Part shown: piece by piece, positions 6,291 through 21,954 of the stretch
How positions within the stretch are numbered: the first letter of the stretch is position 1
Layout of the letters: the number at the start of each line of letters is the position of its first letter
From: Eledone cirrhosa
Taxonomy: Eukaryota
DNA: 64,000 nucleotides
NCBI GenBank assembly: GCA_964016885.1
Contig: OZ024751.1
Span: forward strand, 6,386,001-6,450,000
Reading direction: 5' to 3'
Translations under genes and position numbers: made by a program
Notes under the pieces: model-generated
Databases searched by the model: none
Told to the model about the DNA's origin: nothing
The model's input: only the letters and a program-made list of their open reading frames with translations

Positions 6291-6372
6291 ACTCCAACTA
6301 ATTAGTTTCTGCAATGGGATAAAGACAGTTACGTAATCCAACTGTCGAGAATTCATTGCGTCATCAGGGAGT
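6291..6372 (-). ncRNA. Type I hammerhead ribozyme with 51-nt helix II
   Basis: actcc-CTGATGA-gcaatg..gacagtt/aactgtc..cattgc-GAA-ACTAATTAGT-T-ggagt. Confidence 0.8.
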
Positions 6373-7128
6373 CTATTCTCAGTTAAGTCTCCAGGCAATG
6401 CGCGGACACTGGCGGCTCATATAAAAATAATAATAATTCGGTAGATCGAACAGCTTGCGAGGACTGGATTCTATGTACCGAAATTCTCATATATGTATAT
6501 ATATATGTATGTATATATATATATATATATATATATATATATATATATATATATATATATATATATATATATATATATATATATATATATATATATATAT
6601 ATATATATATATATATACATATATGAGCAATTTTAATTCTCCCAAATTGAAGGATGAGTATTTAAAACATTATTTTATCATGGGTTAAGGCTCTATTGAA
6701 TTATTCCCTGGATTTCACTAAATTCTGTTGGATAAATCTATATTCTGATTCTTTTTGAATTGACTTTGAATTATTTTTCCCACATTTTACGTTAACTATT
6801 TTCCCATGTTGACGCTATAGTCTCTTATATATTATGGAATACTGTTAGCTTCTTGCTACAATACTTTCTATACCTTTCATTTATATATATATATATATAT
6901 ATATATATATATATATATATATATATATATATATATATATGTAGATAAATCTACCAAGAGTTTACGGTAGTGTCAAATCCGTATGAAGAACTCAATGTAT
7001 TCCGGATATCATGGAAAGAAGAGATGTAATGAAAAACCACTTTCGGTGAAAGATAAACGGTATACAGAGTCAAGATAAAATATTGAACAAATAATGAATA
7101 AACAATTCCTTATATTAAACAAAAAAAG

Positions 7129-7283
7129 TTCATTATTTAACGATCGTTTCTAGGATATATATGTGTTAGAATTGGTATGCATATTCAACAGATCTATGTA
7201 CAAAATTATACAAAATTATACAAATTATCAAGATTAAATATACATACCAAACACATATATACGCCGTCTTCAGAAATAATGAA
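7129..7283 (-). ncRNA. Type I hammerhead ribozyme with 116-nt helix II
   Basis: 10-bp helix I ttcattattt/aaataatgaa, CTGAAGA, tatatatgtgtt/aacacatatata and tggtatg/catacca stems, GAA-ACGATCGT-T. Confidence 0.8.
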
Positions 7284-10200
7284 GTATATTTATTGATAAT
7301 AACAACAATTCAAAATTTCAGTTCAAAATTGACCAATGAAAACACAAAGGGTTAAATGCAGTTCGGTGTGTGTATATACATGTAAAACCCTTACACATAT
7401 TTTACAAAAATGTATGTATAATTTGTATACGCATACTAAAAGGATGGATGCAAATACAAAATTTCAAGGTTAATGTCTCTGTAAGCTTACAATGCGCAGA
7501 TAAGATGCGTATTGACACTTATGAAGTCAAGTATATAAAAATATATTTTTTTATACTCACACATATCCGTACAATCACACATACACGCGCGTATATGCAT
7601 AAATATACACATAACCACGAACATACAAACACACACACACCCCCACTCACATTTATATATGTGGATATAAAATCATAAGCACATGGATATTAATTCACTC
7701 ACATAAAACACTGGCACACACATTTTTAGATCAAGATACAGAAATTAGGTGGGAGGGGGGGGGAGGGGTCAGTATTCAACTGTCTGAGCAGACTGCCTAA
7801 TATAAATGTATCTATAAACTAAGAAAAATATAAAACAATAAAATATAATAAATAAAACATTAAAGAGGAAAGAATAGAAAGAAAAAAGAAAAAAGAAAAA
7901 AGAAATATATCAAGAAAATAAATATATATATATATACACATATATACACATACATATATATATATATATATATATATACACACATACATATATATATATA
8001 CAAAAACATACATATATATACACATAGACACACACATATCCATACATAAATATACACACATATATAAACACATACATACATATACACACATCCACACTAA
8101 GAACATACATATACACACATATATATAAACATATACATATACACACATACATACATATACACATATACATACAAATACACATACATATATATATACATAT
8201 ATATATATATATATATATATATACATATACATATATATATGTACATACACGTACATATACACACACATATACATATAATTACACATACTATATAGACACA
8301 GATATATATAACGACACACATACATGCACATATACAACACTTACATACTAATATACATACAGATATACACATACATAGCTATATATACACACAAATATAT
8401 ACAGACTTACATATATACACATACAGACAAATACTTACGCATCTATATATCGGTATATACATACAAACACCACTACACTATCACACAACTTAGAAATACA
8501 AAGAGAAAGGTATATACCTATACACACATACATACATAAAAATAGAAAAACATATAGATATATATATATATATATATATATACATACACACACATATACA
8601 CATAGATATATATATATAACATATATATACATATATATATATATATATATATATATATACACATACAAATACACATACATACACATACAGATATATACAC
8701 ATACATGCATGTACACACACATAGAAATATTTACGCATACACACATACACACATACATATACAGTCATACACACACATACACCTACACGAACATACACAT
8801 ACACATATATAAAGATATATATATACACACACACACACGCAACACATACACACATACACATATATATAAAAAATAAATAATAAAGATATATACATATATA
8901 CATACACACATACATATATATATATATATATATATATATATATATATATACATACACCTAAATATACATACACATACATACACACATACATAGACATACA
9001 TGTACATACATATATATATATATATATATACACATACATAGACATATAGATACATACACACACAACTTACATACACACATATATATACATGTATATTCAT
9101 ACATAGAATTAGATATATAATCATACATACATATGCACTTACTTATACTCATATATACAAATACATACGCATCCATATATGCGTATATACATAAAAAACC
9201 ACTACAACCTCACCTAACTCAGACATACAAATAAAAATAATAATAAAAAAAAATAATAAAAAGGCATATGTATATACATACACACACGCATTAATAGAGA
9301 TATATATATACACACATACATACACATATATAAATATATATATATACACATATATATATATATATATACACACATACACTCATACATATATATATATATA
9401 AACACATAGATACCCACATACTCATACCACCATAAATACACATATAAACACCCACATATACATATATATACACACGTATATATATATATATATATATACA
9501 CACACATAAAAAACAGACATGCACATATATATATATTTTTTTACACTTATATATACACACATATTATGTACACATACACAACCTCACTTATACACACATA
9601 CACATAAGTTATATTATAATAATAAAGAATAATATATATATATATATATATATACATACATATACATATACATACATACATATATATACGTACATACATA
9701 TAAACATATACATACATAAATACACACATACGAATATAGACATATATTCACACATAGACACCTATATATATATATATATATATATATATATATATATATA
9801 TATACACACATACATATACACAGACACATATACACACTCACATATATATATATGTGTGTGTGTGCACACACACATATATACACACATACACATATATACA
9901 CATAAACACATACATATGCATACATGCACACACACACACATATATCACATAGATACGAAGATAGACATATAAATAGAGAGACATACATATATATACAACA
10001 CACATACACTCACATACATACACACGCATATACATATACATATATATATACATATATATATTCCTATATATACACATGCATACATATATATACACATATA
10101 TACACATACATATACATATACGTACACACATTCACATACACATAGATATATACATGCATATATACACATATATACATACATACACACACTCATATATACA

Positions 10201-11501
10201 CACACAATCTTACATTCATATTTTCATGCGCATATATGTATTTTTATATTTAGATATAAATACCCAAACCTATATAGACACCTACCTACATATATATTCA
10301 TACATAGACGCTTACAAATACAGATGATAATAGTATGGGGGAAAGGGGGGGTTTGGAGAAGGGGATCAAAGTAAATATATGTTTCAAGAAACATAGAATA
10401 TTTTCCGTATCTTTATCCAATGTATGTTCTTACATATTTTCAGTGTTAGGAAATACAACAAACAAGAACTAAGGCAAAATCTATGCATCTCAAAATAAAC
10501 AAGTATACCATTAATCATATGTTAACTAAACCAAAGATAGTCAACATATTGATTTCTAAGGTGTAAATTAGTTAGGTTTATATTATTTGAAGCAGAATTT
10601 TGAAGTTAAACAGTAGTAGAGTATTAATTACAGTATAACTAAATTAAAGTTAATAACGTTATGGTATCAATATTAGGAAATGAATTTAGTAATAGGGAAA
10701 AAAAACAAAAAAAAAAAAAAAAACACACAAATAAAAATAAAATAAAGTATTACATCGGTAGTAGAATATAAATTATAGGTTAACTAAATTAAAAATTATA
10801 TATTTATTTCAATAGTATATGTTAATTAGGTATATAATACATAAAGCAGATATTGTATTTCATCAATAGCATAATATAATTATATGCAAATAGAAATCAA
10901 AATTAATACGCATACATATACATATACATACACATACACATATACATATATATACACACATATATATATATATATATACACATATATACACATATACATA
11001 CACACACACACATACACATACACATATACATATACATATCTTTTTCAAAAAATTGCATAGAATATATTAACTAGGTATATATCCAAAACACATCCCATTC
11101 TATGATTACATGACATTCTGCAATTCGTCTGTATAAGGATACTAATTTTAAGCAAATTAAAATTAAAATTTTTAGGTTGATTAAAACTAAAACCAAATTA
11201 TAAATATATTTCTAAAATGTATATTAATTAGGTCTATAATACTAAAAATTATTTCTCTGTCATTGGATACACGATATTATTTTGTTATATATTATCTGTA
11301 AAAGAATTATAATAAAAGGTTTAAATAAATTAAAATTAATCTATAAATTAAATTACTAAGTATATATTAGTAATATTTAAAGGTTTTTCACAATTTATGA
11401 TTACATAATATTTTATATTCTCATCTGTAATAAAATTTTAATTAAATTAAATTTATAGGTTAACTAACATTTAAATTAAATTAATTTCTAAAATAATGTT
11501 A

Positions 11502-20607: not shown

Positions 20608-20776
20608 AGGGAGAGAATTGGGAGTGTGTAACACTCCACTTATCAAATAGGCAGTATATGATTAGCTCAATGTCAGAGGACAGAGCCGTAATACAATTAA
20701 CAACAAAGAGCGCTTAGAACATAGGTATATCTTAAGACATACCTATGTTCTAAGCGCTCTTTGTTGTTAATTGTGT
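20608..20776 (-). repeat. Short insertion in (TA)n ending in an 82-bp near-perfect palindrome (20693-20774)
   Basis: acaattaacaacaaagagcgcttagaacataggtat / exact reverse complement, centre tcttaaga. Confidence 0.8.
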
Positions 20777-20839
20777 ATATATATATATATATATATATAT
20801 ATATATATATATATATATATATATATATATACAATGGGC

Positions 20840-20964
20840 TTCCACTGAAGATTTATAAGTGCCCACCTAAATATATTCTTACTTGAATATATGTTAGGCT
20901 TCTACATAAACTGGAAACATTCTCCCAATTTGTAGAAAACTTATAATGAAACAATTGTTTGGAA
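20840..20964 (+). ncRNA. Type I hammerhead ribozyme with 96-nt branched helix II
   Basis: ttcca-CTGAAGA-ttataagt..acttataa-GAA-ACAATTGT-T-tggaa. Confidence 0.8.
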
Positions 20965-21829
20965 AGAGAGATATATTTTAACTTTAATTATATCTCATAA
21001 AATAATACAACTGGCTTTCCACAAAATACATATAGTTAGCACCCCAAACACTTAAATTGGGTTTATACTAACATATAACCTAATGTTTGTTGAGTGAGAT
21101 GGTTACCAGTCGGAGTTTAGCTTAAATCTATCTCTGTTATTGTATTAAATATTTTACTCTTGATTTGGCCAGAGGTATTTATTTCCAGGTACCTTATAAA
21201 CATGACTTTCCGTATTTGTTACCGTTATGAGGTATGGTGGGCTTTTGGTTGTCACTTCTCTGGTTTTAGCCTAAGAAAATATATATATGCGTGAGTAAAT
21301 AATTACATGCATACATTTATTTTTTAAAATTAATTGAGTTCTTAACACGTGAAATTGATAATGGTTTTGAAATAACTAATTAACCCGCATGTATTAAATA
21401 TTTTACTCTTAATTTGGCCAGAGATTTACATTCGCAGATGCCTTTTAAAGCGTAACTTTCCGTATTTACTACGGTTATGAGATGCGACTTGTTATTTAGG
21501 TATCACTTCTGCTTTTAGCCTAAGAAAATATCTATATGCGTGTGTAATTAATACACGCATACATTTATTTTTTTAATATCAATTGAGTTCTTAACACGCT
21601 GGATTGATAATGTTTTTGAAAAAACTAATTAACCCACGTGTATATTATTTTCTTTTCTCGTGATTCGTGGTTGTCTCCCTTTCCCGCTTCGTGACGCTAT
21701 GATACTTCCTCAGTCAAAAGACTGCTGGAATTTCAAATTTGGCGGTCATTCGATGCGTGAAGGAGCAGCTTAGCAGACACGATTTTTAACTGCGGTAAGA
21801 ATTTTTTCTCATATCAAAGTTTAATGGGC

Positions 21830-21954
21830 TTCCACTGAAGATTTATAAGTGCCCACCTAAATATATTCTTACTTGAATATATGTTAGGCTTCTACATAAA
21901 CTGGAAACATTCTCCCAATTTGTAGAAAACTTATAATGAAACAATTGTTTGGAA
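21830..21954 (+). ncRNA. Type I hammerhead ribozyme, second copy
   Basis: Identical to 20840-20964. Confidence 0.8.

Follow-up and report, generated by a model that had tools for sequence, protein, structure and literature searches.

Conserved hammerhead motifs with enlarged helix II domains in Penelope-like elements and retrozyme-like units of Eledone cirrhosa

Introduction

The hammerhead motifs nearest to those considered here are the minimal, small-palindromic-helix-III hammerheads of metazoan Penelope-like elements, for which loop 1 and tertiary contacts are described as poorly defined and whose cleavage is poor in the monomer and better in the dimer when the palindromic helix III is short (PMC4209133). 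In this study, we analyzed a 64,000-nt stretch of the Eledone cirrhosa genome (contig OZ024751.1, positions 6,386,001 to 6,450,000 of assembly GCA_964016885.1), referred to below as the window, in which a first-pass annotation had pointed to hammerheads with helix II domains of 48 to 116 nt. We sorted these motifs and their relatives into families A to G. Like the published group, they are type I hammerheads with a palindromic helix III and predicted dimer activity, and they agree with it also in carrying extra nucleotides at the helix II base, in sitting in terminal repeats and in having thousands of dispersed copies (PMC4209133). The published helix II, however, is 6 to 8 bp long with a short loop, whereas the domains here span 45 to 116 nt and include three- and four-way junctions and a putative pseudoknot with the flank. 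The published minimal descriptor asks for a stem II of 3 to 7 bp and a loop of 3 to 10 nt, a range that domains of 48 to 116 nt exceed.

Two of the families, B and C, invite comparison with the Hydra clade of Penelope-like elements (PMC8557442). That clade is marked by a CxCx5C linker, a DKT motif, an RWK-like motif and CxxC/CxH around the catalytic E and N, and has no conserved CxxC between GIY and YIG. The B and C elements share with it the CxCx5C and CxxC/CxH motifs, (TA)n ends and a 3' hammerhead, and B also shares DKT and an RWR. The tabulated Hydra hammerheads have spacers of about 12 to 25 nt in elements generally under 3 kb, whereas B has a 116-nt spacer in a 7.1-kb element. The nearest long case in File S2 of that report is PLE-X1_sMoe of spike moss, with a 9-bp stem II and a 35-nt loop 2, which is flagged as deviating; eight Naiad "half-core" cases have 35 to 50 nt between the boxes and are given there with no structure.

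Families A, D and E resemble instead the non-LTR (LTR, long terminal repeat) retrozymes of animals (PMC7229834; bioRxiv 10.64898/2026.07.22.740005) in forming tandem units with one type I hammerhead each, with no linked open reading frame (ORF) found here, in a genome rich in Penelope-like elements. The retrozyme surveys used canonical or minimal descriptors, and the available parts of the two reports describe no branched helix II. In pseudoknot-stabilized hammerheads, loop-loop contacts give way to a Watson-Crick pseudoknot between the stem I and stem II regions, as we propose for our branched families; such pseudoknots are needed for fast cleavage and raise rates by orders of magnitude, and about 40% of representatives likely use one, in a study whose length analyses left out the highly repetitive type I motifs (PMC3088659). 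Unlike in those cases, the strand that pairs here belongs to the junction of a multibranch helix II, and the ribozymes are retroelement ribozymes of the dimer type. The accessible portions of the literature that we searched hold no multibranch helix II or flank pseudoknot for Penelope-type hammerheads. Earlier reports of long or branched stem II variants may narrow the novelty; PMC13725137 cites Weinberg 2015 among reports of variants with additional helices. Judged from sequence comparison, the enlarged forms are real and conserved, a new structural form of a ribozyme-retroelement association that is already known, with ribozyme activity predicted.

Results

Hammerheads with long helix II domains in the window

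The window (G+C 33.7%) abounds in (TA)n and in fragments of Penelope-like retroelement ORFs. We searched it with a type I descriptor consisting of CUGANGA, a variable spacer, GAAA, a self-complementary helix III, UH and a helix I of at least 5 pairs. The strict form of the descriptor returned 6 motifs with a spacer of at least 40 nt and 7 shorter ones; 200 dinucleotide-preserving shuffles in 1-kb blocks returned 0 of either kind. All of the long motifs named by the first-pass annotation are present, with domains of 51, 116, 48, 96, 96 and 97 nt, and every one has both boxes, the UH site, a helix I of 5 to 10 bp and a self-complementary helix III, which in these representatives of families A to D is a perfect palindrome of 8 to 10 nt. 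A seventh long motif, of family E, was absent from that annotation (Table 1).

The domains had been described as closed by pairing stems. This holds for A, B and D, which fold better than their shuffles (z of -4.1, -8.0 and -6.5, and -3.8 for the D copy whose domain starts at 44646), and it fails for the 48-nt C copy (z of +0.18), which is a decayed deletion; the 62-nt form of C forms one long interrupted hairpin (z of -2.0). The two hairpins pointed out in the 96-nt domain are those that RNAfold predicts. The expectation that standard models would miss these motifs was also borne out: Rfam at gathering score gave 0 matches in the whole window, and no hammerhead family appears in the 150 listed of the 195 Rfam matches at E<=10 in positions 1000 to 23000. 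The short hammerheads of the window likewise escape Rfam. In the loci examined, spacers form a continuum from 11 to 116 nt, and the long forms are its tail.

The first-pass annotation had taken the inserts as one structural class in unrelated families. We find two architectures, unbranched hairpins (B and C) versus branched, pseudoknotted junctions (A, D, E, F and G), the latter being three-way in A, E and F and four-way in D and G. The A, B, C and D inserts are dissimilar on inspection; the families themselves are not all unrelated, since B and C both bear Hydra-clade marks and the downstream flanks of A and E are homologous (z of 7.5 by pairwise alignment). Among the long families, no pair other than A-E exceeds z of 2, and there is in addition a weak similarity between H31 and H36.

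Branched families are abundant and their helix II is conserved

The 3.0-Gb assembly was searched with exact patterns, the reversed pattern serving as control; the loci listed are the first on contig 1, so the alignments mainly sample contig 1. Family A has 10,848 matches, E 2,033 and D 1,987 (control 0 for each). Families F and G, found outside the window in flanking loci (F at L256:4238 and L294-L323, G at L024:1142 and L327-L346), have 2,692 (control 1) and 963 (control 2), which brings the five branched families to about 18,500 pattern matches. The domains measure 45 to 59 nt in F and 77 to 88 nt in G. Outside the window, family A forms a 558-nt tandem unit in long arrays, its units being mostly 518 to 571 nt; E is a 483- to 485-nt tandem unit and D units are about 990 to 1,010 nt. 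A, D and E are thus tandem non-coding units with a complete type I hammerhead each and are retrozyme-like.

Copies end in (TA)n in A, B, C, D and E; several of these families show two different 3' ends, and copies often lie in inverted pairs. An apparent ORF link in L148 was discarded, as it ended in (TA)n. The (TA)n ends, together with the alternative tails and the inverted arrangement of copies, make it likely that A, D and E derive from Penelope-like elements; F and G are probably likewise ORF-less tandem units of such origin.

Had the inserts been unconserved and unstructured across copies, this would have spoken against the first-pass proposal; instead they are conserved, and they covary in A, E and F across diverged subfamilies. 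The family A alignment (27 of 36 distinct sequences, after removal of near-duplicates and truncated flanks) has 91.6% of its cells paired versus 83.1% when shuffled, and slid registers reach 36 to 59%. Changes on both sides affect 55 cells versus 18.9 in shuffles (0/500). Helix II is 98% paired with 2/6 pairs covarying, and the inner hairpin is 80% paired with 4/7 covarying; cUUCGg-type loops occur in several A subfamilies. In D (30/37 sequences), 96.7% of cells are paired. A coding role for the helix II of A was set aside: the start codon there opens a short frame that, by eye, is broken in other subfamilies. As a separate observation, a donor-like GU motif lies within 32 nt after helix III in flanks of A (49/49; for example near 6280), E (19/19) and F (20/21) when a loose pattern is used.

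A putative pseudoknot with the 5' flank

In A, D, E, F and G, the strand that opens the junction after helix II is complementary to the 4 to 7 nt immediately 5' of helix I. Flank and junction match in runs of at least 5 Watson-Crick pairs in 69% of A (n=35), 63% of D (n=38), 83% of E (n=23) and 62% of F copies (n=29), compared with 1 to 4% when another family's junction is used and 4% in C (n=25), where the pseudoknot is absent. In B, such runs reach 38%, equal to the 3' control, and we do not count them as a pseudoknot. In the F alignment (26/29), the predicted pseudoknot is 92.3% paired, with both-side changes at 2/5 pairs in 19 cells (0/500); slid registers are 26 to 42% paired. Family A has one pseudoknot pair changed on both sides, in 5 cells, and two E subfamilies carry different complementary pairs. 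In G, the pairing amounts to 3 to 4 pairs, seen by eye only. At the level of sequence, then, the pseudoknot covaries clearly in F and partly in A and E, whereas in D and G it shows conservation alone.

Families B and C reside in Penelope-like elements

The B element of the window is collinear with loci L181, L182 and L184 and has 98.7% amino-acid identity to the intact L181 ORF, located at 794-3283. The B hammerhead occupies both terminal repeats in L181 and L182, the repeat spacing in L181 being 7,081 bp. The L181-type ORF shows CxCx5C, DKT, RWR (for RWK), CxxC and CxH; Pfam gave no reverse transcriptase (RT) match for it. The C element is collinear with L257 and L258, and the motifs seen in its protein are the linker (CxCx5C, in the L257 copy) and the C-terminal motifs only. 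By our reading of the ORFs, made without a tree, B and C carry the motifs that define the Hydra clade; the Nematis clade, considered first, was dropped in favor of Hydra on the published motif definitions. The B element (L181:1-8101) is 7.1 kb, of which about 4 kb is a microsatellite-rich 3' untranslated region (UTR); the hammerhead is separated from the likely start codon by about 490 nt with several upstream AUGs.

A similarity search with B gave no match, probably owing to low-complexity filtering, and patterns were used instead: a 22-nt B anchor that does not require the insert has 7,362 exact matches (control 0). The B domain varies from 103 to 126 nt, in its apical part. Its basal helix II pattern is shared with hammerheads of 30- to 33-nt spacer, including a C-C mismatch at pair 4 (12/12 and 10/10), and one of these sits in a Hydra element (L183) with about 40 to 47% protein identity to the B element. 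Because the basal stem of these shorter hammerheads is retained, the B helix II looks like an ordinary Hydra-type helix II extended at its apex. We read the unbranched enlargement of C in the same way.

The 5' ends were scored in 82 B copies found by a downstream anchor, some of which are halves of one inverted insertion and so are not independent. Forty of the 82 ends lie 0 to 8 nt upstream of CUGAAGA, with 18 exactly at -7; 8 lie 10 to 44 nt upstream, 19 extend at least 60 nt and 15 fall downstream of the box. This pile-up suggests a transcription start site at helix I. The base at -8 is non-reference in 2,861 genomic matches, and it is G in 22 of the first 100 matches, so that a cap signature is not clear. 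The predicted cut site coincides with the 5' end in only 1/82 copies.

For C, 40 of 1,645 first-look candidates from the genome search were scored. Among 25 rows, the spacer is 62 nt in 20, 61 nt in 2, 48 nt in 1 (the window copy) and 46 nt in 1, the last row being an alternative reading of a 62-nt copy. The 8-nt helix III palindrome is identical in C, D and a family with an 11-nt spacer (L067:1236, L167), whose RNAs could in principle pair across families through helix III.

Table 1. Positions of the hammerhead families and their elements in the window
Feature	Position	Strand	Details
Family A hammerhead	6291..6380	minus	motif 6372-6291; CUGAUGA 6367-6361; GAAA 6309-6306
Family A helix I	6372-6368/6295-6291	minus	
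Family A helix II domain, 51 nt	6360-6310	minus	6-bp stem, inner hairpin
Family A pseudoknot strands (putative)	6380-6376 (5') and 6351-6347	minus	
Family A helix III, 10-nt palindrome	6306-6297	minus	predicted cut after 6296
Family A unit, 5'-truncated single copy	6120..6489	minus	ends in (TA)n
Family B hammerhead	7129..7283	minus	10-bp helix I; CUGAAGA 7273-7267; GAAA 7150-7147
Family B helix II domain, 116 nt, unbranched	7266-7151	minus	
Family B helix III, 8-nt palindrome	7147-7140	minus	predicted cut after 7139
Putative splice-like signals in B	GUAUGU from 7247; CUAAC at 7169; AG ending 7150	minus	
Family B element, 5'-truncated	6941..11968	minus	ORF endonuclease end 11968-11502; microsatellite-rich 3' UTR, about 4 kb; 3' terminal repeat; tail to (TA)n
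Family C hammerhead, decayed copy	16856..16932	minus	helix III palindrome 16869-16862
Family C domain, 48 nt	16920-16873	minus	14-nt deletion of the 62-nt family form
Family C element, Hydra-clade Penelope-like by motifs, 5'-truncated	16807..19472	minus	broken ORF end 19472-18448
Family D element	20833..22142	plus	990-nt unit between two 320-nt direct repeats, hammerhead in each; (TA)n flanks
Family D hammerhead, first copy	20835..20964	plus	motif 20840-20964; CUGAAGA 20845-20851; GAAA 20948-20951
Family D first-copy domain, 96 nt, four-way junction	20852-20947	plus	putative pseudoknot strands 20835-20839 and 20861-20865
Family D first-copy palindrome	20951-20958	plus	predicted cut after 20959
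Family D hammerhead, second copy	21825..21954	plus	motif 21830-21954; domain 21842-21937; predicted cut after 21949
Family D hammerhead, third copy	44629..44759	plus	motif 44634-44759; 97-nt domain 44646-44742; basal stem weakened
Family E hammerhead, imperfect copy	1553..1639	plus	motif 1558-1639; helix I mismatch, imperfect palindrome
Family E domain, 51 nt	1570-1620	plus	z -3.3; putative pseudoknot strands 1553-1557 and 1575-1579

Other features of the window

Five short hammerheads with a 14-nt spacer and a 6-nt palindrome (+48921, +49390, -47787, -48256 and -48725) lie in a 469-bp tandem/inverted array at 47530-49719 that is retrozyme-like. Intermediate spacers occur at +3157 (26 nt), +52767 (36 nt), -53623 (26 nt) and -49813 (29 nt), the palindrome being imperfect in the last two. 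Penelope-like ORF fragments are found at 36304-37944 (+; 546 amino acids, with RT and GIY-YIG matches), 13118-13834 (+), 27875-31024 (-), 51218-51745 (+) and 57214-58656 (-). The last two are similar to the Hydra-type B protein, and near the first three we found no descriptor-matching hammerhead. Near-perfect inverted duplications at 2991-3104, 16595-16711 and 20693-20774 score weakly against microRNA models and are probably fold-back junctions of retroelement insertions. The open frames at 41277-42544 (+), which carry a zinc-knuckle-like CCHC motif, resemble ORF1 of a non-LTR retrotransposon.

Discussion

The enlarged hammerheads of Eledone cirrhosa have an intact core, a helix I, a palindrome and conserved folding, and they are placed in elements. 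We propose that they have an enlarged helix II, that in the branched families a flank pseudoknot stands in for the loop contact, and that they cleave only as dimers, within Penelope-like elements or units derived from them; we give this joint reading a probability of roughly 70%. Two copies would pair through the palindromic helix III, and cleavage is predicted only in the dimer. In the branched families, the pseudoknot likely takes the place of the canonical contact between loops I and II, docking helix I on helix II, and the junction likely makes room for the added hairpins, which would have no part in catalysis. Tandem transcripts would be cut slowly and in a dimer-dependent manner into unit-length RNA, and uncut RNA would be the template for retrotransposition. 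In A, B, C and D, two cofolded copies are predicted to be more stable than two monomers by 9.6 to 12.6 kcal/mol, and for A and C the minimum of the cofold is a dimeric hammerhead joined by a helix III duplex. Uncut RNA has been reported as the insertion substrate (PMC11167929); the 1/82 B copies that start at the cut site are in line with uncut RNA as template and also with a dead ribozyme.

Several observations weigh against this proposal. The unconstrained dimer fold of B and D is not a hammerhead fold, and among the Xenopus retrozyme dimers that have been tested, 8/9 showed no cleavage (bioRxiv 10.64898/2026.07.22.740005). Next to the core, the G10.1-C11.1 pair is missing in A, B, C and D, where the stem is flanked by C-A, A-A or U-U (in A, a G-C pair lies one step in); it is canonical in most E and many F copies. 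Conservation of the core is partly built into pattern searches that demand it; in a domain-only search the boxes were intact in 13/13 rows of A (4 of them by eye after a one-base offset), 3/3 of E, 4/4 of D and 0/1 of F. Covariation is weak in D, with 5 both-side cells, a score reached by 36/500 shuffles and no such cell in the pseudoknot; the number of covarying pairs is not above shuffles in A (326/500) or F (377/500), and kinship among sequences inflates the cell counts in both. Part of the pseudoknot signal is composition, because runs of 5 pairs arise with shuffled flanks too (42% of trials for E, 15% for A) and the 3' junction strand matches the flank as well (mean run of 3.8 to 4.0 versus 4.5 to 5.5 for the own strand). 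Finally, no linked or parent ORF was found for A, D, E, F and G in the loci examined.

The enlargement could alternatively house transcription and splicing signals, the B helix II containing a 5' UTR intron, which we consider unlikely. In B, transcription would start 7 nt before CUGAAGA, with GUAUGU as donor, a branch-like CUAAC and an AG formed by A11.1-G12; splicing would shorten or remove the ribozyme and unspliced RNA would transpose. The pile-up of B 5' ends and the non-reference base at -8 fit this scheme, with a cap signature that is not clear, and the donor-like motif and CUAAC recur in 37/40 and 33/40 distinct B domains, although B is young, so that motif conservation carries little weight, and the splice consensus is unscored. 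There is precedent in the Drosophila virilis Penelope, with a 75-bp intron 46 bp after the start site, within the promoter (PMC2377424), and introns are kept when Penelope-like elements move (PMC8557442). In D, a donor-like GUAAGA 41 nt upstream (at 21795) is kept across subfamilies, and a loose expression finds a donor-like motif just after helix I in A (49/49), E (19/19) and F (20/21). With gap patterns shown to work in the genome, however, no spliced genomic copy was found for B, which is weak evidence since introns are retained, and the three matches in D were two point variants and one truncation, none of them spliced. A search of sequencing runs with family B listed none that held RNA. 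The predicted joint was not seen in four contig runs of unrecorded kind, which carry no weight either way; a single contig gave one unrelated 100-nt skip. We rejected A11.1-G12 as a general acceptor, since the AG is missing in E and most F copies, and the AG needs no splicing to explain it, since an extra A before GAA occurs in other Penelope-type hammerheads too (PLE-X1_cBra). It is likewise doubtful that B carries an intron in helix II as a splice switch alongside a non-autonomous, undescribed, multibranched and pseudoknotted subclass with tens of thousands of copies. If true, B RNA would alternate through splicing between two forms, a template for transposition with the long-armed hammerhead and a message in which the ribozyme is shortened or lost.

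Two further explanations seem to us quite improbable. The element's RT-endonuclease protein or a host protein might bind the domain and so aid folding or recruit the RNA, as the first-pass annotation had entertained. The Anolis Penelope hammerhead needs the element's protein in order to cleave (PMC11167929), the domains are held under pairing constraint, and B 5' ends pile up at the 5' edge of the ribozyme. Yet A, B, C and D have no sequence or shape in common in their apical parts, B tolerates length changes of at least 10 nt, and related Hydra elements amplify with spacers of 12 to 36 nt, so that the clade's protein needs no large domain. Alternatively, the inserts might be tolerated passengers, fold-back duplications at a permissive site, in hammerheads that may be catalytically dead and still copied, a prospect that we rate just as low. 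Helix II tolerates insertions, and the continuum of spacers in the genome agrees with this, as do the little covariation in D and the 28-bp AU-rich stem of B, which looks like an inverted duplication with few both-side changes. This explanation may hold for B and C alone. It sits poorly with the compensatory changes in helix II, the inner hairpin and the pseudoknot across diverged A, E and F subfamilies, with the cUUCGg-type loops of A and with a pseudoknot position that recurs with different sequences.

A dimer-cleaving hammerhead with an enlarged helix II is thus the reading we prefer, and it touches on the function of Penelope-type hammerheads. Because published survey descriptors cannot detect a long helix II and are blind to the enlarged forms, the number of ribozymes is likely underestimated in some animal genomes, and a hammerhead may be present in some of the elements now classed as ribozyme-less or "half-core". 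The five families with a putative pseudoknot bear on how a dimer-type hammerhead could gain tertiary support without loop I, and their natural three- and four-way helix II scaffolds may be useful for ribozyme-switch design.

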